From assembly GCA_030599585.1 (NCBI GenBank), contig JAUVNS010000009.1, forward strand, positions 32,001 to 96,000: a DNA stretch of 64,000 bases. The letters are read 5' to 3'. Positions within the stretch are counted from its first letter, which is position 1, and each line of letters opens with the position of its first letter. The notes beneath the pieces were generated by a model. That model worked only from the letters and a program-made list of their open reading frames with translations. It did not search any database and had not been told where the DNA came from. Below, one piece after another: positions 31,770-50,513 of this stretch. A program made the position numbers and the translations under genes. The DNA is from Promethearchaeota archaeon (GTDB taxonomy: Archaea > Asgardarchaeota > Lokiarchaeia > Sigyniarchaeales > SOKP01).

Positions 31770-32906
31770 GTGTTAAACTTAATTGTTAGGGTTAATTATA
31801 ACAATTTAGGAATTTTGAGTTTGAAGTGTCTAATGAAAATTCTGGATATTGATAAGAAGGAGGAAACAGTTTCATTAAGAATCGAAGATTTAAACGATCT
31901 ATGGACGCTCTATAATATTATTGCCAAAAATGACCAAGTAACTTCACGAACAAACCGTAGAATAGTTTTAAAAGAGGGTTCTAAAGGAGAAAGAAAACAA
32001 ATGAAATTGAAACTAAAAGTCGATTCCATCGCATTCCACGAGTTTTCAAATCGGCTAAGAGTGAAAGGAACTATCTTAGAAGGCCCAGAAGATTTTGTTT
32101 CGTATGGGACATATCATACGTTTAATATAGAACCAGGGCAAACATTGACAATTGAAAAACCTAAGTGGTTAAAAAGCGAGATTAAACGTCTTAGGAAATC
32201 ACCTAGATTTCAAACTGATTTTGTCATGCTAATGGTAGCGATCGAAACAGGGTTGGCAACAATCGCGCTCATTACAAATTATAGTCATAATAGAATAGCT
32301 ACAGTAAAAAAAAACATCCCCGGCAAAAGATACGAGCAGTCACATCGAAATAAAGCGTACGAAGAATTCTATAGAGATATTAGTAGCATAATTAAAGAAA
32401 AAACAGAACGTGTAGACTTAAAAATCATTATAATATGTGGTCCTGGGAGCACTAAGGATCACTTAAAACAATTTATTAAAGAAAAATCCCATATAACGAG
32501 GTTACCGAAAATCGTAAGCATTCAAGCTGGCTCTGGAACTGAAAGCGCTATTCTAGAAACTCTTAAATCAAAAGAACTCAAAATCCTACTAAAAAATGTT
32601 AAAATTTTCCTTGAAACTGAGAAAATTGAGGAAATTTTTCAGTTATTCAGTACCAATTCAGATTTAATTGCAATTGGATTCGATGAAATCTCGAACGCTA
32701 TTGAAAAAAGGGCAGTAAAAGAACTTTTTTGTGCAGATATTCTTATACGAGGTGCATCAAAGAAACAGAAATTAAGAATAGAACAAATATTAAACGATGT
32801 AGAATCTTTAGGGGGAGAAATTCATATTTTAAGCAGCGAACATCCAACAGGGCAACAAATAATTGATTTAGGATCTATCGTCGCTATATTAAGATTTAAA
32901 ATTTAA
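31770..32906 (+). CDS. pelA: mRNA surveillance protein pelota (probable start ATG at 31833)
   Basis: DLWTLYNII, RLRVKG.I, YHT, PGKRY, GPG and LG.IVAILRF. Confidence 0.95.
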   Translation: MLNLIVRVNYNNLGILSLKCLMKILDIDKKEETVSLRIEDLNDLWTLYNIIAKNDQVTSRTNRRIVLKEGSKGERKQMKLKLKVDSIAFHEFSNRLRVKGTILEGPEDFVSYGTYHTFNIEPGQTLTIEKPKWLKSEIKRLRKSPRFQTDFVMLMVAIETGLATIALITNYSHNRIATVKKNIPGKRYEQSHRNKAYEEFYRDISSIIKEKTERVDLKIIIICGPGSTKDHLKQFIKEKSHITRLPKIVSIQAGSGTESAILETLKSKELKILLKNVKIFLETEKIEEIFQLFSTNSDLIAIGFDEISNAIEKRAVKELFCADILIRGASKKQKLRIEQILNDVESLGGEIHILSSEHPTGQQIIDLGSIVAILRFKI

Positions 32907-34060: not shown

Positions 34061-34693
34061 TTGATTATAATGACTCCAATTATAACGCATGAAGATGAAC
34101 TTGAACTATCAAGTCTGGAAAAAGAATTAGTATCCCAAATAAAGAAACTAGCAAAGGCTCAGAGCACATTAATTGATTCTCAAAAAAAGTACGCCGATAA
34201 TTTAAAAAAAGCAACACTCACTCGAGAAACACTCAACAGAACATTTAGAGATGTATTGAAACACATGCAGACTCTAGTACGAGAGAAAAGATCAAATATT
34301 AAAGACGAAGAAGTGAAATTATTCCAAGATATTATTCACAAAAACGATGAATACATAGAAGTAAACAACAAGTATATTGATTCGATTAAGGATATTGCCG
34401 TAAAAAAAGACTACTTAGTCGAAAAAAAATACGAATTTGCTTCGGCTTTAAGCGAAGTAGCAAACAAAAGAAGCGTAGTCATCAAAAAAGCATTATCTGT
34501 TGAGAAAAAAAAAAACGATCTAATCGAAGGAGAAAAAATGAAACTTTTAGAGTCTGAATTGAACGATTTGCAAAGAGACTTTGATCGCGCTCGAGATATT
34601 TTAATAAAAAAAATAGACCAATTTTTACAGGTTAAGAACGAAGTAGATGAATTGTGGGTAAATTTAAAAAATAATGTCAACAAAGCTAGCTGA
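34061..34693 (+). CDS. all-helical coiled-coil protein (BAR-like candidate)
   Basis: About 205 aa of long amphipathic helices, with almost no Pro or Gly. Confidence 0.65.
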   Translation: MIIMTPIITHEDELELSSLEKELVSQIKKLAKAQSTLIDSQKKYADNLKKATLTRETLNRTFRDVLKHMQTLVREKRSNIKDEEVKLFQDIIHKNDEYIEVNNKYIDSIKDIAVKKDYLVEKKYEFASALSEVANKRSVVIKKALSVEKKKNDLIEGEKMKLLESELNDLQRDFDRARDILIKKIDQFLQVKNEVDELWVNLKNNVNKAS

Positions 34694-34823
34694 CTTTAAA
34701 CTTTTTTTATTTTATTTTTATACAATTATCACATATGAACTTAAATTTATTAAATAGTTCAGATATATAATTATTAGAAAAAATACTTGGATAAATCGTT
34801 ATTATTAAATTCGAGAGAATAAA

Positions 34824-35258
34824 ATGGCAGAAGAATTCGCAAATTTCATGCAAGAAACAAAAAAGGCTCCTTTAGAAGAAAAACTAAACGCCTTTGGAGA
34901 CATCGTTGAAAGAATGATGTTTGTAATTTTAAAAATACCCGACTTAGTAGATCAGTCTTTAGCTACTGTAAATCAAAAAATATCCACATTGGAATCACGA
35001 TTCAATACGATTAACAATGAGGTATCATCATTAAGGACCAAAGGCGTTGGGACATCCCCAGTAATCGCTTCACCTACCTCCCCAAGCAGCGCACCACCGC
35101 CTTCTGGAGGCCCGCCTGGAGGTCCACCTGGAGGTCCACCTGGAGGTCCACCACCACCTGGAGGACCCGGAGCCGCTCGTCCAGCAAGTCCGGTGAGCTT
35201 AAGAGGTGCCATAATGGGCGAATTAAAGCAACTTTTTTCTAAGAGAAACCAATCGTGA
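34824..35258 (+). CDS. coiled-coil / polyproline / C-terminal amphipathic helix protein
   Basis: Coiled coil, then PPPSGGPPGGPPGGPPGGPPPPGGPG, then SLRGAIMGELKQLFSKR. Confidence 0.8.
   Translation: MAEEFANFMQETKKAPLEEKLNAFGDIVERMMFVILKIPDLVDQSLATVNQKISTLESRFNTINNEVSSLRTKGVGTSPVIASPTSPSSAPPPSGGPPGGPPGGPPGGPPPPGGPGAARPASPVSLRGAIMGELKQLFSKRNQS
35103..35168 (+). repeat. 12-bp tandem repeat CCTGGAGGTCCA (3 perfect copies at 35115-35150 plus 2 degenerate) encoding (PGGP)n
   Basis: Read directly from the sequence. Confidence 0.9.
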
Positions 35259-35559
35259 TAGTTACTTTATGAATTATTTTTGCAAAGTAAATTCGCTCCA
35301 AACCTTCGCGATTGAAGAAATTTTTTCGCTATTATTTACATGCAGTTTAACTTGAGACGATTTATTTTCAGTCGTTCATTATTAAGTATAATCTAAGTGT
35401 TTTTAAAATCAATTAAAATTAAAACTAAAAAAAAAATATATTACCATAAGAAGTATTCTGTTTTGATTTGATTTCTTTGGTGTAAGAATTATCAGTAATG
35501 GTTCAGAAGTTAACAGGGTAAATGTTGCTCACGATTTACAAAGACAAATCCTAGAAATT

Positions 35560-37215
35560 ATGTCCCTCGTGAGGGTTATAAATAATTATTATTATAAAAA
35601 AGCAAAGATAGAAAAAAAACCAAAACCTCTCACACGAAAAGGGTTAAAAGACGAGTTAAAAAATATAGAACGAGATGGAGATTGGCTTCACACCGTTCCG
35701 TTAGCTATAAACTCGTTAAGTGACGATTTAAATATTAAGAAAGATTCCTTCAAATTTCCCGATAGCATAATTTTATTTGAGGCGTGGATGAATTTAGGTT
35801 TTGGAGCCCTTTTTCCTAGATTAGTGCTTCATTACAAATTTCCTGGATTTTTAAAAGGCGAAAAAACGAGGAATGTTTTCCAATTCACATATTCAACTTC
35901 TAGAGGATTCGGATTTCCCATATACTTTGGTCCAGAATTCTATGGGTATATGTTAACGATAGGTAAAATTTTAGAACCTTTGTTTAAATGGAGCCACACT
36001 ATCTGTCACAGAGCAAATCAAGTGATTTATCTTGTTGGAAAAAAATATGAGATAAAAAGACATCACCCTGGAGAATTTGAATCTGTAATTATATCAGAGT
36101 ATAATAACAAAGTGTTTAAAGTAATTGACACACTTTTACACGGATATTATACGCAAGACCCAAAAACACTTGGTGTGTTCTCAAGTTTAGAAAATGCGTT
36201 AGATAATGTTACATTTTCTTATTCTGTAGGAGATCACGCTATGTCTGCTGAAAGAGAAAAATCAAAGAAAACAATTAGCGTATCATTAATTACGCACGAC
36301 ACTATCGTTCGAAAATACAATGTAAATTTTTACGACTATTTAAATGATTTAATAGCAACAGAAAAGTTGATAAAAAGAAAGATCATCCACTTTAAACAGT
36401 TAAGGAAAGAGTTTATTAGTAATCTAAAGAGAATTGATAGAATTAAATTTAGAATCGATCAATCTAAATCATTTTCAATTCCAAGTTTGAAAATTTCTCA
36501 AAAATTTTCTCAAATTCAAGAATGTTCCCTTCATGTTCGACTTATGGAAATAATTATGAAAATGCTATGGACAACCCCCCTTTATACCCATACGATTCAT
36601 AAAACTATCGACGACGAATTCAATCTTCAAAAGCAGAAACGAAATGAATTTATAACTGATTTTAGTAATACATCAATAGATTCAATTTTTTTACTCTTCA
36701 TAAAGAAATTCGAAGAAAGAAACTCGTTTTCTTTCAAAGAAAAGGATGTTATCAATGAATTAGTTAATCTTAAGGATAAAATTGGACCTATGTGGCTTAA
36801 CTTTAAGGAGGAACATTTCAATTTTGCTTTGAAAAAACTAAGCGATCTTTCTACTTTATCGTTGAATGATGTTAGTTATAGGAAGGTTGTAAACGAATAC
36901 ATAGACAACCTTATTCCAATTTTTTCAATTTATGAAATTTTTAATAGAGCTCTTTCAGAATCCGTTTATCCCGAATCAGTTCCTCAAATAAAACGGTTGG
37001 GAGGATATTTTGCTAGTATATTAACCTCAAGGTTTAATCCTTTCGGAGTAAACCTAATGAATCTTTTTAATAAATTAGCGTTTAATAACTGGAGCTATCT
37101 AATAATAAATAGAAAATTAAATCGAAAACAATTTTTCAAATTGATAATGAAACTTCCTATTTGGAAAAATATTCCTAGGACTATTAAAAAGGAAATACTT
37201 AGCTCAGATTTTTAA
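35560..37215 (+). CDS. hypothetical protein
   Basis: 551-aa ORF; the frame is open upstream to 35467; no motif recognised. Confidence 0.7.
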   Translation: MSLVRVINNYYYKKAKIEKKPKPLTRKGLKDELKNIERDGDWLHTVPLAINSLSDDLNIKKDSFKFPDSIILFEAWMNLGFGALFPRLVLHYKFPGFLKGEKTRNVFQFTYSTSRGFGFPIYFGPEFYGYMLTIGKILEPLFKWSHTICHRANQVIYLVGKKYEIKRHHPGEFESVIISEYNNKVFKVIDTLLHGYYTQDPKTLGVFSSLENALDNVTFSYSVGDHAMSAEREKSKKTISVSLITHDTIVRKYNVNFYDYLNDLIATEKLIKRKIIHFKQLRKEFISNLKRIDRIKFRIDQSKSFSIPSLKISQKFSQIQECSLHVRLMEIIMKMLWTTPLYTHTIHKTIDDEFNLQKQKRNEFITDFSNTSIDSIFLLFIKKFEERNSFSFKEKDVINELVNLKDKIGPMWLNFKEEHFNFALKKLSDLSTLSLNDVSYRKVVNEYIDNLIPIFSIYEIFNRALSESVYPESVPQIKRLGGYFASILTSRFNPFGVNLMNLFNKLAFNNWSYLIINRKLNRKQFFKLIMKLPIWKNIPRTIKKEILSSDF

Positions 37216-38228: not shown

Positions 38229-39329
38229 ATGGAACATACGAATTTGTCATTAGAATATGATAAGAGCCTGATAGAAAGGGTTCTGGACGATCTAGATATG
38301 AGATACATTATCATGTTTTTGTATATTATCAGAAATGACTTGTTTAAAGACTTAAAGGATCCAAAAATTATAGAGTCTTATGAGAGAGTCATCATTTTAG
38401 ACGAAATATTTAAAAATAACATACTCAACTTTTGGGAAGAAAATTTTATTGAAATAGCTACCGATCTGGGCTTGTTTAAAAATATTCGTAGCATTAGAGA
38501 ATTTAATCATAAAGATGGGGATTTCACAATACGATTAGGAGAAGAGACAATTACAATCGAGAACGACAAAGTATCCGTGCCAGATCATACTCTTTTCTTA
38601 ATGATAAATAAAAAATTTAAGTTTCTTACAAAAAGGAATTATAATTTAGCCTTGATTAAATTAAAAGGAGTAAAATGTCAGAATAGTAATCTGATTCATA
38701 ATTTTATCTCTCAAATGGGAGAAAACGATTTTGCAATATCTGATGACATATACTACATATTAGATCAATTTGGTAATGTTTATCAGGCAATAAAAATTGA
38801 GATCACAATCGAAGGGGTTCACCAGAAATACTTAGATATGAAAGAAAAAATTAACGAGTATATAGATATCTTTGAACCAAAATTGAGGAGTAAATCCGTG
38901 TTAAAAAAAATATTTAAAGCGATTGAGAATGAGAAAGATGTTTTTAAATATCTGAGGGATGAAAAAATTGAACTTCCTGATAAGTTCAACATTGACGAAG
39001 ATTCAGAGAGAAATGAAATTGGCAATGACTGGTATTTAAGAGTGATGGCATTATTGAACACTAGGTTTAAGATGGAACAACTCGACGAGAAAATATTAGA
39101 AACCAAAAAATATTATTCTGGAAAAGATAAAATGTTTAATTATCTTGAATTTATAGAAAAAGTGTCTTTTAACGAAGATAGCATAGTAAATAAAATTCAA
39201 AACATTCTACTTAAACTCAGAGAGGATTTAATAAAAATTAATAAAGAACTTGGAGTATTAACGAAAAAAGAATTAAAATTATTAAATTTAGATTATGAAC
39301 GGTATTTAATTACAAGAAGTGATGATTAA
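38229..39329 (+). CDS. hypothetical protein, probable winged helix plus helical bundle (first gene of 8-gene operon)
   Basis: Helix-helix-wing-like segment near residues 118-180 followed by long helices. Confidence 0.65.
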   Translation: MEHTNLSLEYDKSLIERVLDDLDMRYIIMFLYIIRNDLFKDLKDPKIIESYERVIILDEIFKNNILNFWEENFIEIATDLGLFKNIRSIREFNHKDGDFTIRLGEETITIENDKVSVPDHTLFLMINKKFKFLTKRNYNLALIKLKGVKCQNSNLIHNFISQMGENDFAISDDIYYILDQFGNVYQAIKIEITIEGVHQKYLDMKEKINEYIDIFEPKLRSKSVLKKIFKAIENEKDVFKYLRDEKIELPDKFNIDEDSERNEIGNDWYLRVMALLNTRFKMEQLDEKILETKKYYSGKDKMFNYLEFIEKVSFNEDSIVNKIQNILLKLREDLIKINKELGVLTKKELKLLNLDYERYLITRSDD

Positions 39330-39331
39330 AT

Positions 39332-40288
39332 TTGAAGTGTTCAGCATGTAACATCGAAATGGAACCTTTGGTTTCTGGAATTTACCAATGTCCTCAATGT
39401 AGAAGAATTGTGAAGCAGAAAGACGAAAAAGCTGAAGCTGAAGCTATGAAAGAGGTAGAAAAAGGAGAATTTCTCGAAGGAGAATATTTTCACAATAATC
39501 TAAGTCTAAACAAAAAATACGAAGAGTGCGAACAAGGAATTATTATAAATAAGACCGAATCTCGTTTATTTGCTGTGTTAATCTGTCATAGCGCTTATCT
39601 AAGAGACGAAAAATATGTGAGACTCTCATGGTGGAAAAGTTTTCAGCATGCTGGTATGTTTAAAATCTATGAAAAAGCCGTTCTAAATAATACTATTATC
39701 ACATTAGAAAAATTTAATAAAAATTTTGACGATATTTGGACTTGGGGTGGAAAATACGGAGAAAAAGAACCTAAAACCAAAGATGCAAAAGAGAAAGAAA
39801 AATATTTAGACCTAATTAAATTCAGGATTTTAGAACACCGAACTTGCCCAAAATGTCAAAAAAAAATGTCAAAAAAGAAATCTCATTACGAATGCCAACA
39901 TTGTGGTGAAATAGTTATACTGGAGGGGTATAATCAACCAATTTTTAACATACAATCATCAGAATTGGATTTAGATTTTCAATCCAATTTCCCCATCAAT
40001 TATTACTTGCCAGTAAGCGGTATAACTGTGAAGTGGTTAATGGGAGAGTGGAAAGCACTAGCAGTTATTCACGATAAAGATAATCCTAATAAACAATGGC
40101 TAAGATTTTATTGGTGGATGCGTGACTTAAGCAGTTTATTAAAATACGGAAGGAGAGAAATAGGTGAAGGAATCCAAATGGGCTGGAAAGCCCAAAGAGG
40201 AGTTGCGTCCCCTAACATCTACGATAAAAAACTTATCACGCCTTTAATCAAAGCATTAAAGAGAATAAAACAAGAGTTAGATTGGTGA
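39332..40288 (+). CDS. double Zn-ribbon protein with internally duplicated domain
   Basis: CSAC..CPQC and CPKC..CQHC; repeated YVRLSWW / WLRFYWW segments. Confidence 0.7.
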   Translation: MKCSACNIEMEPLVSGIYQCPQCRRIVKQKDEKAEAEAMKEVEKGEFLEGEYFHNNLSLNKKYEECEQGIIINKTESRLFAVLICHSAYLRDEKYVRLSWWKSFQHAGMFKIYEKAVLNNTIITLEKFNKNFDDIWTWGGKYGEKEPKTKDAKEKEKYLDLIKFRILEHRTCPKCQKKMSKKKSHYECQHCGEIVILEGYNQPIFNIQSSELDLDFQSNFPINYYLPVSGITVKWLMGEWKALAVIHDKDNPNKQWLRFYWWMRDLSSLLKYGRREIGEGIQMGWKAQRGVASPNIYDKKLITPLIKALKRIKQELDW

Positions 40289-40313
40289 AATTGAAAGAAG
40301 ACATACAATTTAG

Positions 40314-41462
40314 GTGAACAAAATGGAAAGTAATCAAGAGGGCACTTGGCACGAACTTCTTCAAGACTTCGAGAAGGGTTTAGATAAAGCTATGGATGAG
40401 CTCGAAAAACGGGATGTGGAAAACATACCAGGTGCTAAGGAAGCTTTAAAACAGAGGTTAAAGAATATGAGGCTTCATTTTGCTAAAAATAATGGTGAAA
40501 TTTTTTTAAAATCCATTGATGATAAAATTCAAAATGCGTTTTTCCCTAACACAAAAAATTTTTCTGATGCATTTCAAAAAATAATAAAATCTCGTACTCA
40601 CGAACAAGATTTTATCATAAACGAACTGTTAAACGGATTCGTGGCTTCAAAAGCTAAAGCTGTTGCTACGGGAACTCAAGGACCCGTAATTGATAGAATG
40701 GTCGAAGCTTTTAGTAAAAGAAATGATTTTCATATTATTGATCATCAATTTTATGCTATGTTTGGCGACCCTAATAAACCTCGACACTATATTAAAAGTC
40801 AACTTGAAGAGTTGGTTAAATTATTTGGTCTCGTGTCAAAAGAATTAATTATAGAAAAGGATGTTAGAAAAAGCGAAGAAAAAATATTCACTTTTTATAC
40901 TTTTCCGGAAAAGATTATTAAAATACTAGAAGAGAAATATTTAATACTCGACGAAAAATTAGGATATACATATGTTTCTGAAGCATTTGATAGAAATGTA
41001 TTCATATGTATGTTCTTAGCAAATGTGGCCATTAATAGAGATGATTTAGATAAGATTGGTGGATATTATACTTTAAATGGTATCTCGGCCATTTTTGCGT
41101 TAATTCTGCTGTTAAGTTTTTTACCTAAATTATCAATAGATGAAACAAACCCCATCCTTAACGATCCTAATTACGATACAGATACTATGAGTGTTATTCC
41201 TAAATCTTGGATGATGAAACAAGTTTTAGAACCATTGTTCGAACCTTTAATTAAAATCATTGCTTACAGATTAGGGGGTGGTTTATGGTTGTCTAAAATA
41301 ATTGCTTCAGATATTAATAAAAAAATCCATAATCAAATACGTTTTTTGATTAAAGACGTCAATAAATGGGTTCTCGGTCAACTCGTAAGAGTAGAAATAC
41401 CAATCTTCGTAGAAATTTCGAATATTTTCACAGAAATCGTAGTGGGCTACGATGAAAGTTAA
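40314..41462 (+). CDS. hypothetical protein (operon)
   Basis: 382-aa ORF, tightly spaced within the operon. Confidence 0.7.
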   Translation: MNKMESNQEGTWHELLQDFEKGLDKAMDELEKRDVENIPGAKEALKQRLKNMRLHFAKNNGEIFLKSIDDKIQNAFFPNTKNFSDAFQKIIKSRTHEQDFIINELLNGFVASKAKAVATGTQGPVIDRMVEAFSKRNDFHIIDHQFYAMFGDPNKPRHYIKSQLEELVKLFGLVSKELIIEKDVRKSEEKIFTFYTFPEKIIKILEEKYLILDEKLGYTYVSEAFDRNVFICMFLANVAINRDDLDKIGGYYTLNGISAIFALILLLSFLPKLSIDETNPILNDPNYDTDTMSVIPKSWMMKQVLEPLFEPLIKIIAYRLGGGLWLSKIIASDINKKIHNQIRFLIKDVNKWVLGQLVRVEIPIFVEISNIFTEIVVGYDES

Positions 41463-41479
41463 TAGCAATGATAAATTGA

Positions 41480-42796
41480 GTGAGAATTATGAGTTATAAA
41501 AGAAAAACAACAAGGAATGTTAGGCCTGGGAGAAAAAGGGAGAAGTGGACAGATATCTTACCGAGGTACCTTACATTTTTAACTCATATGCGCCCAATAC
41601 TAAGAGAAACAAGAAGGATAATAATTGATTTGGATGCCGACCTTCTTTTAGATACAGAAATTCTAGACAAAATTCGGGAAGAAGAAGAAAAGCGAAATTT
41701 TAGAAAAGTAAGAGCTTTATCAGAATTTTCCGCAATGTACAGGTCAAATATCTATGAAATTATAAAAGATTTCTTAGTTAAATATAGGAATCAAATACCT
41801 ATCCTTGATATTAAAGATTATATTATTGAATTCTTATACGAATCAATCGGGGCTCTGAATACTTTGTCACACATCACTAACCCAGACGAAGCAAATTTAG
41901 AAAACACATATCTTTATGTTTTAGCTAAGTTCATTGAAGAACGACTCTTCTCTCGAGGTAGAAATTTAAGTATTATATATAGTACCTTATTAGGTTATTC
42001 TTCAGATTTATACGATTGTCAGAGACATATGCTCCAACCACATACTTATTATCGTGAAAAATTAGAATCCTCTGATTTATTTGAAATTCCTGGAATATCC
42101 CCTAAAGTTTACAATATTATCAATAACGTAACCTCACTTTTTAATTTGGATCCGAATTTCGGAGAATTCCCTGAACGAGAAAATCAGGAACTGCCAATGA
42201 TATTAAAACCTGAAGTATTCGATCCTTATATTGATTCTATAGCAAATGCAGAAGAAGAAGCTATCGTACAAATTTCTGAACGATTTGGACTGCGATTAAT
42301 AGACGGAATCTTCCTTGCTCCAAGAGAAGACCTAGTAGATTTACTAACAGAAAATAATTTTTTGCGAAAAAATTCACAATCAGATGGAAAAGTACGATTA
42401 ATACCTCAACTAAGCAATGAAAGCTTATTTCTCTATTATTTAGCTTTCGCATCCCAGAGAAGAGGTTTTTTATCGAAAGAATTAATAAATTGGATTTCAA
42501 TGAATTTCGCTTTTTTAATTTATATGGGTATTTTGAAGTGGAAGTTGTCAGATCAAAATATTTTCTATCCTATCTTTAAGGATTTACAGACAAATGAGAA
42601 GATTTTACCTTATTTAATGAAACTTCTCTGTTTTCCTAACTATCTAAGTATTGATAAAATGAAAATACGGGATTCTCCACAATATAGAAAAGAAATTTTT
42701 AACTTTATTGGTTCTCAAATCGATAATCTTAAAGATTTTATCTCAGAAATAGCTGAATTTTGTGAAAAGTTTGATAAAGAAAGAAAAAATAACTAA
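41480..42796 (+). CDS. hypothetical protein with basic N-terminus (operon)
   Basis: 438-aa ORF beginning YKRKTTRNVRPGRKREKW. Confidence 0.7.
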   Translation: MRIMSYKRKTTRNVRPGRKREKWTDILPRYLTFLTHMRPILRETRRIIIDLDADLLLDTEILDKIREEEEKRNFRKVRALSEFSAMYRSNIYEIIKDFLVKYRNQIPILDIKDYIIEFLYESIGALNTLSHITNPDEANLENTYLYVLAKFIEERLFSRGRNLSIIYSTLLGYSSDLYDCQRHMLQPHTYYREKLESSDLFEIPGISPKVYNIINNVTSLFNLDPNFGEFPERENQELPMILKPEVFDPYIDSIANAEEEAIVQISERFGLRLIDGIFLAPREDLVDLLTENNFLRKNSQSDGKVRLIPQLSNESLFLYYLAFASQRRGFLSKELINWISMNFAFLIYMGILKWKLSDQNIFYPIFKDLQTNEKILPYLMKLLCFPNYLSIDKMKIRDSPQYRKEIFNFIGSQIDNLKDFISEIAEFCEKFDKERKNN

Positions 42797-42812
42797 ATTA
42801 GAATAAAAAGAG

Positions 42813-43931
42813 ATGAGAAAAATGAGCAATTCAAAAGATGATGGAGACGGGAAGATAACTTTCACCGAAGACGTCATTAAAAGTAGGTTAGGTAAATATG
42901 GAGCGGTATATTTTCCTTCCGCCATACAAGAATCAATAGATGATATTCTAGGTAATGAGAATATAAAAGAAATTTTACACGATTTCTTTAAAGCTTTGAA
43001 GAAATACTATGAATTTAGTAAACGATTAAAGGGAGCAAAACTCAACCCGAGTTTAACCGTTCTCTTGTATGGCCCACCAGGTACAGGTAAAACTTCTCTA
43101 ACAAGAGGGTTTGCAAAGCATTACGATATTCCATTATGTGTAGTAGAAACTGATAGGTTAGTTTCTCCATTGCTAGGAGATACTATTAAACAAATCAGGA
43201 ATGTCGTGGATTTAGCAGCAGAGATAGCAAAGGAACGTGGTAATTTTATCCTTTTCTTTGACGAAATAGATGCTATAGGCTCCGAAAGATCTAATATTCA
43301 TGAAGTAGGTGAGATCAAACGAGCTGTTATTTCATTTTTACAAGTAATTGATAGAATAAATTATGAGGGAGTACCCTTAGCAATTTTTGGGGCTACCAAC
43401 CATCAAAATCAACTAGACTCAGCGATTTGGAGGCGGTTCACGTTTCACTTTAGCTTTGAATTCCCAGAATATCCTCTGAGAAAAAAAATAATTGAATCAT
43501 TCCTTGCTAAAGTTAAAAATGCGAAAATCGGCGTTGATAACTCAATATACACCAATTTAGCCAAAGAATACGAAATGATTCAAAAGATACATAGTAATCT
43601 TACAAGTAAACTAGGATACGAAATCTCTGAGTTTAGTGATACTCTACTTTGGGACGAAATCAATAAAATCAGCAAAAACCAAGGATTGTTAGAGCTTACA
43701 ATAGGATTTTCAGGTTCAGATATTGAAAGAGGAACGAAAGTATCGCTCTTAAAAGCTATTAATACAGAACGCTTAACTTACGATTTATTTTACAATTCTC
43801 TAAAATTAGTGGGAGGGACCGCTATACATGTTGAAAGACAAGATATTTTAACCGATTCAAAACAAAATTTTTTAAAATCTTCGAAAAATGAGCAGAAAAA
43901 ACGCTATATGAAAAGTCCTCCAGAAATCTAA
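42813..43931 (+). CDS. AAA+ ATPase (classic clade, single domain)
   Basis: Walker A GPPGTGKT, Walker B FFDEID, SRH ATNHQNQLDSAIWRRF and GFSGSDI. Confidence 0.93.
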   Translation: MRKMSNSKDDGDGKITFTEDVIKSRLGKYGAVYFPSAIQESIDDILGNENIKEILHDFFKALKKYYEFSKRLKGAKLNPSLTVLLYGPPGTGKTSLTRGFAKHYDIPLCVVETDRLVSPLLGDTIKQIRNVVDLAAEIAKERGNFILFFDEIDAIGSERSNIHEVGEIKRAVISFLQVIDRINYEGVPLAIFGATNHQNQLDSAIWRRFTFHFSFEFPEYPLRKKIIESFLAKVKNAKIGVDNSIYTNLAKEYEMIQKIHSNLTSKLGYEISEFSDTLLWDEINKISKNQGLLELTIGFSGSDIERGTKVSLLKAINTERLTYDLFYNSLKLVGGTAIHVERQDILTDSKQNFLKSSKNEQKKRYMKSPPEI

Positions 43932-43978
43932 GATATTTTTTTTTAAATACGAATAAAAAAATAAATTTACTTGAAAAA

Positions 43979-45013
43979 ATGGAAATAGAATTATTTAACC
44001 TTGAAAAGATAAAGGGATTAACCGCCCCCATTAAAGCTTTACAAGGAAGAGTCAACCAAGTATCAAATCTCGTAAAAAATATAGAACCTGACCAAAAATT
44101 AGCTTCATCTTATTACGGAAACAATTTACTTTTTAAAGAACTCGAACAATTAACAAAATATGTAGATAAAATCAATGATAATTTAAAGATTGTCTCAAAC
44201 AATAACATTAACAAATTTTTAAAATTGAAAAACTACTTAATCAATAAATACAAGCAATCAATTAAAGATAGCTTGAAAACCATTGATTTGGACAATGAAA
44301 ATTTAACACAGATTGGCCTATCATTAATTGAAAATAAATCAATTAGTAAAATAATTGAAAGAATAACGTACATTCCTTCTGTCACCATTAAACAGTGGCT
44401 TGATTTATTAGATGCTTTAAATCAGAACACGATTTTCCTAAAATCTGTTGACAATTTAAGAGAACACTATAAAACAATTTTACAGGACAAATTAAAAAAG
44501 GAACTGGCAAAAATACCCCGTAATGTAGAATCTTTCACAATCGAAGATTTTAAAAGACAATTTCATATCACACCTGAGTTAACCTATGATAAATTCATTC
44601 AATCGATTGAACATAAACTTACTGAAGAAGAATTAAAATCGAAGAAAGAGCTCTTGGAAAAAAAAAAAGAAAAACAAAAGATTGAAGACCTAAAAAAACA
44701 ACAGGAAGAGCAAACGGAATCTTATGATAGTTATTTAAAATTCTCAAATAAAGAATTCGAAAGAAGATTGCGAAAACAGAAACGCGAAAAATTGACTGAT
44801 ATTAGCGACACGGAAAACAAGAAGGACATTGAAATAACAGAAGAAATCTCCCAGAAAATCGAGATGTTTAAAAAACAAATGGATAAAAGATCACAAGACC
44901 AACACATTAATCTCGGTGATCCTAGCGCAGACCCAATAAAATTAATTAGGGAAAGAAAAAGAAAAAAAAAGGAAGAGTATGACGAGTTTAAGGATCATTT
45001 TGAAAGCGATTAA
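43979..45013 (+). CDS. coiled-coil protein with charged C-terminus (operon)
   Basis: K/E-rich helical composition. Confidence 0.7.
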   Translation: MEIELFNLEKIKGLTAPIKALQGRVNQVSNLVKNIEPDQKLASSYYGNNLLFKELEQLTKYVDKINDNLKIVSNNNINKFLKLKNYLINKYKQSIKDSLKTIDLDNENLTQIGLSLIENKSISKIIERITYIPSVTIKQWLDLLDALNQNTIFLKSVDNLREHYKTILQDKLKKELAKIPRNVESFTIEDFKRQFHITPELTYDKFIQSIEHKLTEEELKSKKELLEKKKEKQKIEDLKKQQEEQTESYDSYLKFSNKEFERRLRKQKREKLTDISDTENKKDIEITEEISQKIEMFKKQMDKRSQDQHINLGDPSADPIKLIRERKRKKKEEYDEFKDHFESD

Positions 45014-45026
45014 ATACTAAAGTGGA

Positions 45027-46649
45027 GTGAAATTACGCATTAATAAAAAAAGGACTGAGATTATTGTAGGAGAAAATAAGATCTTTATAGAAGATCGATA
45101 TACTTTAGTACAAGGGAAATTTAAGCTTAATCAATTTCATGAATATTATAATGACGATTATCTTAAGATTCAAGAAAATTTGGATTTAATTCCAGTAGAA
45201 AAATTTATCAAAGTAATTTCAAACGAATCAAATAGCTTATCAGGCTTAACAAATTTTACCAAAATACTAGATCTCTTATCTGGTTATAGTAAGATTGTTG
45301 AAAATAATCTAGAAATCTATGTAAAATTTAGCGAAAATATAGAAATTTTGCATACCCTCTTTAAATTGATCTATTTCTCAACAAAAATGAAAACCCTGTC
45401 TAAAGAGTTAGAATTATCAAAAATTCGTAATCTTTCGAGCGATATCTTAGCTACTGCAGATTTAATGAAAAGTTTGGCAGAATCTATAAACAACAACAAG
45501 GTCAAATCGTCCTACATCAAAGAAGATTATTTTCAACGGAAAAATCAAATTGACAAAATCAAGAAAGATCAAACAATTTATGAAACACTAATTCAAGATC
45601 AATCCCAAATTAAAAAAAATTGTTTTGATCAAATCAATAAAATCACTAGGCAATTAGAGGGCTCAAAAACAGAAAATGAAAATGAATCGTTTTTACGGTT
45701 AGGTATTGATACAAATTTAACAAATTCAGAGAAGATAAGAGCCCTTCAAAAAAGAGCAAAAGATACGCAATATGAAATTAACAAGATTAGGCTAAGATCA
45801 AAACAATCACAAGCAGAATTCGAAGAATTATCGCCAAATTATGAAATTTACAGAATTGATTATGAAGAAATTTTAGAAGCCATAAACGAAGACGAGAAGA
45901 AATTGAGACAAGTTCAAAAGGACTATGAAAAAAAAGTTATGGAAAATAAAGAGTTTCAATTTGGAGAGACTAAAGAGTTACTCTCACGACCTATTAGGCC
46001 ATCTTTAGAGATTGAACAAGAACTAAAAAATGTTGAAACTGAATTAGATAATTTATCGTTTCCTGTTAATTTAAATAAGAAAAACTTACCAAGTAAAATA
46101 CCTATAATAACAGAGAAGTTTAAAGAAATTGATGCTATCCTTAGAAATAACGATGATTATATAAATATTAACGCAAATGAAGAAGAAATCGAAGAATTTT
46201 TTGAAAATTTTCGTATTTTTGAGAATCTTCTTAAGAACTTTGAAAATATTGCGAATAAGTTTCTAAAAACAATTCAACTCCAAGTACAGTTTAACCTCGT
46301 TACAAACCAAATGAACACTGCTTTTTTGATAAAGACGGATTTCACAAGAAATTTTAAAATTAAAGTAAGTTTTGAGAATTTAACTACTCCTGAAAAAATT
46401 TTTTTCCTAATAAGTTTTTTTATCTCGTTTAAAGTTTTGTTAAATTCAAAAAATATTATTTTTTCAAATTTATTCATTCTTCCGGTATATAATAAAGGTG
46501 GTTCAATATATAGAACCATCAGGAAAATTATCCCTTTATTTGAAACTGACGAAAATTTATCTGATGTGAGTATTATATTGCTTATGTCAAATCTAATGTT
46601 GAAAAAAGATATCGAAAAATTGAAAATTATAAAAGTAAATGAGAGTTGA
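45027..46649 (+). CDS. SMC/Rad50-like coiled-coil protein with degenerate ABC-ATPase head
   Basis: N-terminal EIIVGENK (Walker A position), long central coiled coil, LTTPEK (signature position), IIFSN (Walker B position) and IILLMSN (H-loop position). Confidence 0.6.
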   Translation: MKLRINKKRTEIIVGENKIFIEDRYTLVQGKFKLNQFHEYYNDDYLKIQENLDLIPVEKFIKVISNESNSLSGLTNFTKILDLLSGYSKIVENNLEIYVKFSENIEILHTLFKLIYFSTKMKTLSKELELSKIRNLSSDILATADLMKSLAESINNNKVKSSYIKEDYFQRKNQIDKIKKDQTIYETLIQDQSQIKKNCFDQINKITRQLEGSKTENENESFLRLGIDTNLTNSEKIRALQKRAKDTQYEINKIRLRSKQSQAEFEELSPNYEIYRIDYEEILEAINEDEKKLRQVQKDYEKKVMENKEFQFGETKELLSRPIRPSLEIEQELKNVETELDNLSFPVNLNKKNLPSKIPIITEKFKEIDAILRNNDDYININANEEEIEEFFENFRIFENLLKNFENIANKFLKTIQLQVQFNLVTNQMNTAFLIKTDFTRNFKIKVSFENLTTPEKIFFLISFFISFKVLLNSKNIIFSNLFILPVYNKGGSIYRTIRKIIPLFETDENLSDVSIILLMSNLMLKKDIEKLKIIKVNES

Positions 46650-47170
46650 TGAGAGATCAAATGGAAACTGTGAATTTTGAAGATATTGTGAAAAATATCG
46701 CTAAAATTGTCATAACAAGCCCACAAAAAATGATTAGAGAAGAAGATCTTCTGATTTTAACTAAGAACTTGGATTTTGAACAGGTGATAAGCGCTGTTTA
46801 TTCAAATTTGAAAAATGTTGGGTTTGAATTTATCAAATCAAGGTTTTTAGATCAAAATTATTACATTTTAACTTCTGAAGGAAAAGATGATAGAGTTACT
46901 CCATCACAATACGGAACTCTAGCCCTAATCCTTGCGCTTAGCAAAGAATTGGATGAAAACTTAGACATAAATGATCTAAAAAATATTTTTAAAGAAGTAT
47001 GGAATACTGATATGAAATTTTTAATCGAAAACGATTATTTAAGGAAAATCGAAGATCAAAACATACTAAAAATAACGCCATTAGGAAAAGCACTTTTAAA
47101 AAATATAATTAAAGATATTGAATTAAAAAACTTGTTGGAAGCCTTTAAAAGAAAAAAAGAAACAGCTTAA
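46646..47170 (+). CDS. tandem winged-helix protein (ScpB/MukE/JetB KITE-like candidate)
   Basis: Two wH-like modules; TPSQYGTLALILAL...LIENDYL...ITPLGKALL; overlaps the stop of the SMC-like gene. Confidence 0.55.
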   Translation: MMRDQMETVNFEDIVKNIAKIVITSPQKMIREEDLLILTKNLDFEQVISAVYSNLKNVGFEFIKSRFLDQNYYILTSEGKDDRVTPSQYGTLALILALSKELDENLDINDLKNIFKEVWNTDMKFLIENDYLRKIEDQNILKITPLGKALLKNIIKDIELKNLLEAFKRKKETA

Positions 47171-48448: not shown

Positions 48449-49381
48449 TCACATAAACATTCTATACTTATAAACCAAATATGATCCTACCACTCCACCT
48501 AATTCAGGGAGATAGTAGAGAAAAGATAGGAATGAACCACTTAACCCAAATAGTAATCCGGGAATTAATCTAAATAGAATAATCATAAGTAAGAAACTCT
48601 TTCCACTCATCCTGATGGGAATTATTACTACGCGTGCTTTTAATCTTTGATTCATTGCAGGGAAAATTGTAAAAGTAAACAAACCGTATAACCCCCCCCA
48701 AACTAATCCAACACTATCAAAATTAGAGGGACTATCTAAAGGATAATAAAATGTTATCCCCAGCCTCAGTATAATATAAAATAATATCGAAACAAACCCA
48801 GAAAATAAGAATAATTTCACTAAGAACTTCGTTCCAAAAGCTGTTTCAAGCATTTTCCCCATTAAAAAAGCAAAATAAAAGATTATGAATATAAGAATCA
48901 TTGAAAAGATGAAGAAATCATCGAATGGATTAATTGAATAAATAAAAAGAGACGTAATAAAAGTGTGATATGTAAATTTGTAAATTATCGCATTTAAGCT
49001 TAAAAAAACATACTCTTCTATACCCAAAATTCTAAATATTATCGCTACTATTGAAAAGGAGATAATTAGTAAAAGAATTACTTTAATACCTTGAAATTGT
49101 GATCTCTTAGACGAGTATCTGCGTATTTGCTTTGCAGATTTTTTCTCCTGCCTTTCTTGTCTTCTAATATATTTACTCACATTTATTGTTCCTTTATTTG
49201 TATCACTATGGTTAAGCTTAGATTCTTTAAGAGCTGAAGTTATGATAGGAATATGTTTTGATTCAAAACTACATTGGTGATTCTCAGGTAATCGATGTTC
49301 TTTACAATAAGCTCCTCCGCAATACTTGCATTTAAATGGTAAGAATGGTATTTTTTCTCCACAATGTTCGCAAAATGTCAT
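48449..49381 (-). CDS. AN1-type zinc finger fused to rhomboid-like membrane domain (predicted inactive)
   Basis: CEHC...PFKCKYCGGAYCKEHRLPENHQC, then TFITSLF, GKMLETAFGTKF, G.VWGGLYG and ELGG. Confidence 0.8.
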   Translation of the reverse strand: MTFCEHCGEKIPFLPFKCKYCGGAYCKEHRLPENHQCSFESKHIPIITSALKESKLNHSDTNKGTINVSKYIRRQERQEKKSAKQIRRYSSKRSQFQGIKVILLLIISFSIVAIIFRILGIEEYVFLSLNAIIYKFTYHTFITSLFIYSINPFDDFFIFSMILIFIIFYFAFLMGKMLETAFGTKFLVKLFLFSGFVSILFYIILRLGITFYYPLDSPSNFDSVGLVWGGLYGLFTFTIFPAMNQRLKARVVIIPIRMSGKSFLLMIILFRLIPGLLFGLSGSFLSFLYYLPELGGVVGSYLVYKYRMFM

Positions 49382-49532
49382 GAAATATTCCTTATAGTCT
49401 ACAAATCGTATTACTAATTATCAAGTATTTCTATTTAAGTTTACTTTCTTACATTTTTAAAATTTCGATCCTTGATAATTATTCTTATAAATTTATTCGT
49501 GATTCTTCATATCCTAATCAATGTAAAGAAAA

Positions 49533-50513
49533 TTAAATGTAAAGTCCTACTGGTGAATTAATAAGAAGTAAGGTCAATATTAACATAATAACCAACGAAC
49601 TCGTTAAGCCAATATAGACTCTTTTATTCCATTTCCATATATTTTGTCCATCTAATATCCCAATAGGAATCATATTAAAAGCTCCAAGCATAAAATTGAA
49701 GTAGGATGCATAACCAATGAAAAAATTCAAAGGATAGAGTGTATTAGGTATAAGTAGAGATATAATTAATAAAATCGAACCATAAATCAAATTAACTATT
49801 GGTCCTGCTGCTTTACATAGTCCTGTCTTTCTGTTTATTTTATCTAATCCTAATACCACGACTGCACCAGGGAGAGCTAGCATTGGAAACGTACTAGATG
49901 AACTTATTAAACTAATAAAGCCCATAACAAGGCTTAAAGTCGTTAAAAGCATCCCAAATGTAAGTAAGCGAAATTTTGTTTGAAGCCCAAAACGAATCGC
50001 TACTTGACGATGGCCAAATTCGTGGAAAAGAAATGCAGTCATATAAAAGCCAGCAAGCATAAAAAGAGCCCAAATATAACCCGAATCGATAATCTGATTA
50101 TAGAATGAAATTATTCCAATCAAAAAAATTAAGCTACATCCAATTATAAAATGAAGTAATTCAGATTTATGTGCCAATAATATTCCTTTAAAATTAATGC
50201 CAGAATCAGGATCAAAAGCGTTTTCCGGTACTGCTTGCTCTTGACGATACCACGTATAAGTTCCATCAGTTGTTCCTCGCGTGGTAGTTTCTGTAAAACT
50301 ACTTTGTTCTGTAAATGACGGAGTTGTTTGTGATGGAGCTGCATATTGAGGAGTCAATTGTGATGTCGCATGAGAAGTATAATTCAAGCTCTCTACGACA
50401 ATATTACATTCGTGATCAATAGGATCTTTATGCAACGAGCAATACGATTGGCCACATTTAGAACAACCATACAATTCGGAGTTTTCGGTACCACAATGAT
50501 AGCATTTTGGCAT
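49533..50513 (-). CDS. AN1-like zinc finger fused to M50 site-2 protease
   Basis: CYHC...CSKCGQSYCSLHKDPIDHEC; HEFGH, AAGPIVN and FNMIPIGILDG. Confidence 0.9.
   Translation of the reverse strand: MPKCYHCGTENSELYGCSKCGQSYCSLHKDPIDHECNIVVESLNYTSHATSQLTPQYAAPSQTTPSFTEQSSFTETTTRGTTDGTYTWYRQEQAVPENAFDPDSGINFKGILLAHKSELLHFIIGCSLIFLIGIISFYNQIIDSGYIWALFMLAGFYMTAFLFHEFGHRQVAIRFGLQTKFRLLTFGMLLTTLSLVMGFISLISSSSTFPMLALPGAVVVLGLDKINRKTGLCKAAGPIVNLIYGSILLIISLLIPNTLYPLNFFIGYASYFNFMLGAFNMIPIGILDGQNIWKWNKRVYIGLTSSLVIMLILTLLLINSPVGLYI

Follow-up and report, generated by a model that had tools for sequence, protein, structure and literature searches.

An operon of eight genes (g1 to g8) lies at positions 38229-47170 on the + strand of the window studied here, a 64,000-nucleotide stretch (positions 32,001 to 96,000) of contig JAUVNS010000009.1 from a Promethearchaeota archaeon. 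It encodes, among other proteins, an AAA+ ATPase, a degenerate SMC (structural maintenance of chromosomes) protein, and a kite protein. We read it, with a probability of about 45%, as derived, by domestication and loss of the SMC motor, from an AAA+-coupled SMC5/6-type cassette; it would serve as a non-extruding, AAA+-cycled DNA clamp or scaffold for genome maintenance. Operons of this kind are called dead-type below, and relatives with an ATP-competent SMC are called intact. G, C, L, and f numbers denote the genomes, contigs, loci, and families compared.

All eight co-directional open reading frames were recovered, with intergenic distances from g1 to g8 of 2, 25, 17, 16, 47, 13, and -4 nt, and the flanking genes were identified with Pfam as Elf1 and Lsm/SmAP3. 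An earlier note on this DNA was borne out in its gene count, its gaps, and the location among the core genes elf1 and SmAP3. The final 4-nt overlap presupposes a TTG start for g8; a start at the next codon, ATG (46649), gives the junction TGATG with a 1-nt overlap. The genes are as follows:

38229..39329, +, g1: 366 aa, unknown; N half globular, C half helical/coiled; orthologous to gene one of intact operons
39332..40288, +, g2: 318 aa, pI 8.9 (basic); a unit made of a Zn-ribbon and a beta-sheet/helix, present twice
40314..41462, +, g3: 382 aa; helical hairpin, central winged-helix-like domain (~113-235), C-terminal helical bundle
41480..42796, +, g4: 438 aa; paralogue of g3 with a confident model
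42813..43931, +, g5: 372 aa, AAA+ ATPase related to IetA; no N-domain, catalytic motifs intact
43979..45013, +, g6: 344 aa, helical with a charged C-terminal tail; found only in dead-type operons
45027..46649, +, g7: 540 aa, predicted mini-SMC, ATPase-dead and without a hinge; its N-lobe strands and C-lobe are joined by a short coiled coil
46646..47170, +, g8: 174 aa, kite (tandem winged helix), Nse3/MAGE-like; profile match to the kites of intact operons

The earlier labels of double Zn-ribbon, AAA+, SMC-like, and tandem-winged-helix (kite) proteins held, but no tool showed the winged helix that had been assigned to g1.

The relationship of g7 to SMCs was assessed by hhalign. Against the SMCs of intact operons, g7 gave a match of 96.5% (E 9e-10). 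Because coiled coils may inflate such scores, the head lobes were also aligned separately, with column shuffles as a control. Compared with 0.14-0.89 for the shuffles, E was 0.0076 for the N-lobe strands to Walker A and 5.6e-4 for the C-lobe, signature helix included; both lobes were in the correct order. Walker A, signature, and Walker B were all degenerate in 17/17 g7 orthologues, in agreement with the degenerate SMC head of the earlier note. A hinge profile matched neither g7 nor g6, no CxxC indicative of a zinc hook was found in the 17 orthologues, and g7 is 540 aa long versus about 1050 for its intact relatives. These results indicate that g7 is a half-length SMC5/6-type protein without ATPase motifs or hinge. 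For g8, the corresponding comparison with intact-operon kites gave 97.7% (E 2e-12). When a joint profile of g8 and these kites was searched against the PDB, the top three matches were Nse3/MAGE-G1, weak at E 0.013-0.05. The ratio of nonsynonymous to synonymous substitution rates (dN/dS) of g8 was 0.06-0.11, making it the most conserved gene in the 3' half of the operon. Conversely, g6 gave less than 2% in hhalign against the kleisin, SMC, winged-helix (wH) protein, and kite of intact operons. As far as profile comparison can tell, the eight-gene operon appears to contain no detectable kleisin, and the SMC-kleisin-kite set expected by the earlier note would be incomplete in this respect, unless g6 or g1 is a remote kleisin. 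The possibility that g6 is the N-half of a split SMC was ruled out, as g7 holds both lobes and g6 matches neither SMC nor hinge.

The intact form is arranged in the order g1-g3-g4-AAA-full SMC-wH-kleisin-kite, with g2 nearby; its SMC is 1015-1200 aa and its wH protein ~290 aa long. It is patchy across other genomes. Complete operons were found at L017, L038, and L134, L035 lacks g1, and the intact-type loci L031, L032, L036, and L043 end at contig ends. Position by position, the g1, g3, g4, AAA, g7, and g8 genes match their counterparts in intact operons. Walker A and the signature were present in 7/7 intact SMCs, and Walker B in the 6 complete ones. The intact SMC profile retrieved Smc6 and Smc5 first from the PDB (E 4e-53) and no MukB/JetC at E <1e-15, and one intact-operon kleisin showed a weak match to Nse4_C. 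With the kite profile likewise ranking Nse3/MAGE first, the MukBEF/Wadjet-like parentage that had been proposed was not upheld. The gene contents and profiles show a dead SMC stripped of the hinge, of half the arm, and of the three ATPase motifs; the kleisin and triple-wH genes were apparently lost as well, and g6 was gained.

The g5 ATPase best matched the IetA family (E 1e-56), although its IetA score of 170 bits was far below the cut-off of 510; a weak similarity to CdvC was also noted (77 bits versus a cut-off of 650). Walker A, Walker B, sensor 1, and the Arg fingers are intact, and the motifs are invariant. An S8 protease partner, present beside outgroup AAAs, was found neither in the operon nor in its flanks, so that g5 appears to be an intact IetA-related AAA+ without a protease partner. 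In the AAA tree, all SMC-linked enzymes formed one clade (99/96), apart from the IetA-S8 pairs and other outgroups. Within it, the dead-type enzymes formed a single clade (98/96) that tracks host family; the deepest branch was of intact type, and the intact types were long-branched and scattered. Loci L057-L059 carry a Methanomicrobial IetA-related AAA; its neighbors in L058 are two M24 peptidase genes on one side and a metallo-beta-lactamase gene on the other.

In every intact relative, the AAA gene adjoins an ATP-competent SMC. Since the AAA+ accompanies SMCs that are themselves ATP-competent, it would have been present before the SMC lost its motor and was probably not recruited as a replacement. 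This alters the earlier proposal that the AAA+ supplies energy that the degenerate head cannot, even though the AAA is the one ATPase left in the dead form. The g3 tree recovered the same dead-type clade as the AAA tree, and the intact form is likely ancestral to the dead form, with the reservations that the root of the AAA tree is based only on outgroups and that the L021 branch is long.

The source genome itself holds other SMC loci. At L021:4067-15452 (G000:C11, ~19-30 kb) lies a truncated intact copy with the order AAA-SMC-wH-kleisin-kite-351-aa gene, in an island of 24% GC compared with 33% for the genome; this genome has 8.9% contamination, but the L021 contig also holds its condensin-type SMC. 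An HD-domain gene and two unknown genes are divergent from the operon. At L021, genes of 353 and 368 aa were rejected as homologues of g3 and g1, as they lie on the opposite strand and gave no match. The condensin-type SMC of the genome occurs with ScpA, and at L023:3795-9769 (G000:C40) there is a standard SMC5/6-related SMC-kleisin-kite operon. Upstream of its first common start codon, the SMC frame at L023 stays open, and the preceding 427-aa gene has faint AAA similarity (E 5e-4), possibly representing a pseudo-AAA. In family f18, L139:2417-13107 contains an AAA and an intact SMC; a kite is among the clustered unknown genes from which they are divergent.

At the locus of G213, a single-contig genome, an intact operon lies inverted between a resident g2 and a remnant of dead-type g8 (58 residues) beside galK/SmAP3. 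The g2 groups with the dead-type g2 of a congener (71% identical, SH-aLRT 98), and dead-type g7 and g1 were not found in the genome. This arrangement indicates that the intact form replaced the dead form in place, and it is possible that powered and dead forms are interchangeable at the locus.

We also examined how widely the dead-type operon is kept. The synteny check across Asgard genomes proposed in the earlier note showed that more than 20 loci of the two Lokiarchaeal families f1 and f2 keep the order g1-g8, flanked by elf1 and SmAP3. The g3 gene was present in 118/134 f1, 13/14 f2, and 1/2 f30 genomes (131/148 for f1 and f2 together) and in no other genome of the phylum among 400 searched, and g8 was present in 37/39 good-quality genomes of the host order. 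Two single-contig genomes (6.035 Mb and 4.324 Mb) hold the dead form, and homologues of the operon proteins carry Promethearchaeota/Lokiarchaeota names. True operon loss was ruled out in G071, G267, and G343, where assembly gaps fall at the flanking genes, and loss of g6-g8 was ruled out in G008, where these genes are displaced by ~9 kb. The island at this point in G008 (L006:9891-17275 and L138) carries PAPS-reductase-like, EndoIII, C5 DNA methylase, and second elf1 genes, and the g5 of G008 has a long branch. In the deepest dead-type operon (L045:2890-13586), g2 leads the order, there are two g1-like paralogues, and the dead SMC is longer, at 678 aa. As calculated against two congeners, dN/dS was 0.21-0.32 for g6 and g7, which evolve two to three times faster than g3-g5, and 0.06-0.17 for the other six genes. 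With dN/dS between 0.06 and 0.32 across g1-g8, all eight genes are therefore maintained under purifying selection, and none is a decaying pseudogene. The dead-type locus is lineage-core, single-copy, and vertically inherited. The earlier view of an undescribed, possibly lineage-core SMC/kite-related operon thus stands, as the operon was also absent from the papers searched.

Among the remaining subunits, g1 matched the g1 of intact operons (99.3%, E 1e-20) and nothing in Pfam, the PDB, or the Atlas; its dN/dS was 0.11-0.15. The Zn-ribbons of g2 were matched in Pfam, and its halves align with each other (97.8%, E 8e-13), revealing an internal repeat; g2 is probably a nucleic-acid binder. A PC4-like fold for g2 was not confirmed, as a search with the PC4 family did not match it. 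The g3 and g4 proteins are paralogues (hhalign 96.2%), with AlphaFold2 models of pLDDT 73 for g3 and pLDDT 83 and pTM 0.83 for g4. In searches of the PDB, viral, and Atlas libraries with Foldseek and VIA-align, these models gave no significant match; g4 was searched as a whole 438-aa model, and an absent match does not prove a new fold. Structural matches of winged-helix type to the central g3 domain reached only Z 5-6.6, with JetA at background level (Z 5.2-5.3). Only four residues, non-catalytic, were invariant in a diverse g3 alignment. A tandem array of four g3/g4 paralogues (359, 711, 347, and 706 aa) with no AAA/SMC nearby was seen at L136:50-6629. The homologues of g6 are named solely as Asgard hypothetical proteins, and its dN/dS was 0.26-0.32.

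Loop extrusion by SMC complexes requires the head ATPase, the hinge, and kleisin. Here the first two are missing and no kleisin was detected, and therefore the dead form should not extrude loops. In the mechanism that we propose, g7 and g8, with g6 as a linker, would form a static DNA-bound clamp or scaffold, and g1-g4 would provide DNA-binding and structural subunits. The AAA+ hexamer may pull on a subunit, most likely g3/g4, to load or strip the assembly, much as Pch2/TRIP13 or Vps4 act on their polymers. The role would be housekeeping genome maintenance, protecting or organizing particular DNA structures beside the intact condensin-type and SMC5/6-type complexes. Several points weigh against this proposal. 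DNA binding is deduced from weak wH matches (Z <=6.6) and kite homology, the g7 head-lobe alignments are weak taken alone, and in G008 an island separates g5 from g6, so that co-transcription of all eight genes is not obligatory. A complex prediction for g7, g8, and g6(1-275) gave no verdict either way, as a control scored too close to it.

The same genes could instead form a fixed anti-virus or anti-plasmid surveillance system, like Wadjet or the SMC5/6 restriction of circular DNA, in which the SMC/kite part would sense foreign DNA and the AAA+ would release or activate an effector among g1-g4. The nearest relative of the AAA+ is IetA, the intact relatives are patchy, long-branched, and located near ThiF+JAB, NYN, HD, and SWIM/MoxR genes, the intact copy of the source genome lies in its 24% GC island, and a DNA-modification island is inserted in the G008 locus. 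The dead form, however, occurs once per genome, always at one core position, in ~90% of genomes; its dN/dS is low and its tree vertical, which is atypical for defense systems. Among the eight proteins, PADLOC, Pfam, and NCBIfam revealed no effector family such as a nuclease or S8 protease, and none of the four invariant g3 residues is catalytic. We consider fixed defense unlikely, while giving it real weight.

Separate modules would account for another set of observations: g1-g5 would be a polymer with its AAA+ remodeler, and g6-g8 a relic with a structural job of its own. The g3/g4 array at L136 exists without AAA or SMC, L021 has AAA-SMC-wH-kleisin-kite without g1/g3/g4, g6 and g7 evolve faster, and the G008 island parts g5 from g6. 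Yet, in L021 and L139, the AAA accompanies the SMC and not g3/g4, and both halves are retained jointly across the order even if split, making such a division quite unlikely. It is more improbable still that the complex left DNA biology for a cytoskeletal, division, or membrane-remodeling assembly (ESCRT-III/Vps4-like) with g7 as a coiled-coil strut. The CdvC similarity of the AAA, the long N-terminal helical hairpin of g3, and a conserved proline-rich protein nearby fit this idea, but fold searches gave no ESCRT-III match, the kite is the most conserved 3'-half gene, and the AAA groups with SMC-linked, IetA-related enzymes.

In the surroundings, a conserved upstream block at 34061-37215 encodes a 210-aa coiled-coil protein, a 144-aa protein with a poly-Pro/Gly tract, and a 551-aa unknown protein, for which Pfam gave no significant matches. 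The 144-aa protein is reminiscent of actin nucleation factors. Downstream of hypB, at 48449-50513, two neighboring membrane proteins of conserved position carry N-terminal Cys/His zinc fingers that appear AN1-like by eye. A sigma-70 promoter scan of the locus, which is not suited to archaea, remained at chance level.

Of the eukaryotic SMC complexes, SMC5/6, which has Asgard ancestry, is understood least. The two operon forms provide a natural series of live AAA+ with live SMC (the mobile form) and live AAA+ with dead SMC (the core form); a third member, dead AAA+ with live SMC, may be the standard SMC5/6-related operon, on weak evidence. The locus thereby allows testing of SMC5/6-type parts without loop extrusion and of their loading or unloading by an AAA+. 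It is possible, if somewhat doubtful, that the operons represent an undescribed Asgard SMC5/6 class with its own AAA+ remodeler and a g3/g4 pair of no close solved fold; in Lokiarchaeales, this would be a core complex with the SMC as a passive hinge-less clamp and the AAA+ as sole motor, the powered and dead forms being interchangeable at one locus.

Archaeal condensin-related and SMC5/6-related operons have been described, together with what may be a third Asgard complex, whose kite is Nse3-related; an AAA partner goes unmentioned in the main text of that study (van Hooff et al., bioRxiv 10.1101/2024.01.07.573240). A literature search, with subscription journals mostly outside its coverage, found no paper on the dead or intact operon. 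The intact relatives share with archaeal SMC5/6-related operons and eukaryotic Smc5/6-Nse1/3/4 an SMC nearest to Smc6/Smc5, a kleisin, an Nse3/MAGE-like kite, and the order SMC-(wH)-kleisin-kite, whereas in the window operon the SMC is dead, hinge-less, and half-length, a kleisin was not detected, and g1-g6 are additional. Wadjet (JetABCD/MksBEFG) and MukBEF resemble it in the SMC and kite cassette, and the intact form, like them, appears mobile and island-associated. The window operon differs in its SMC5/6/Nse3-type SMC and kite and its added AAA+, and the eight proteins gave no Jet match with PADLOC and no TOPRIM nuclease match with PADLOC, Pfam, and NCBIfam, the latter as the earlier note had reported. 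IetAS combines the AAA+ IetA with the S8 protease IetS. IetA is the best family match of g5, and IetA-S8 pairs are among the tree outgroups; g5, however, lacks the protease, scores far under the cut-off, and belongs to a separate SMC-linked clade. Archaea-specific SMC-related proteins (ASRPs; ClsN/Sph) and Rad50 are comparable as short archaeal SMC-like proteins without a globular hinge. ASRPs require Walker motifs and mostly have a zinc hook (PMC9389158), and Rad50 keeps Walker A/B and a zinc hook too, in contrast to g7, with no Walker motifs and no CxxC in its 17 orthologues. Overall, the operon appears to descend from SMC5/6-type complexes, yet the loss of the SMC ATPase motifs and hinge places it outside them.

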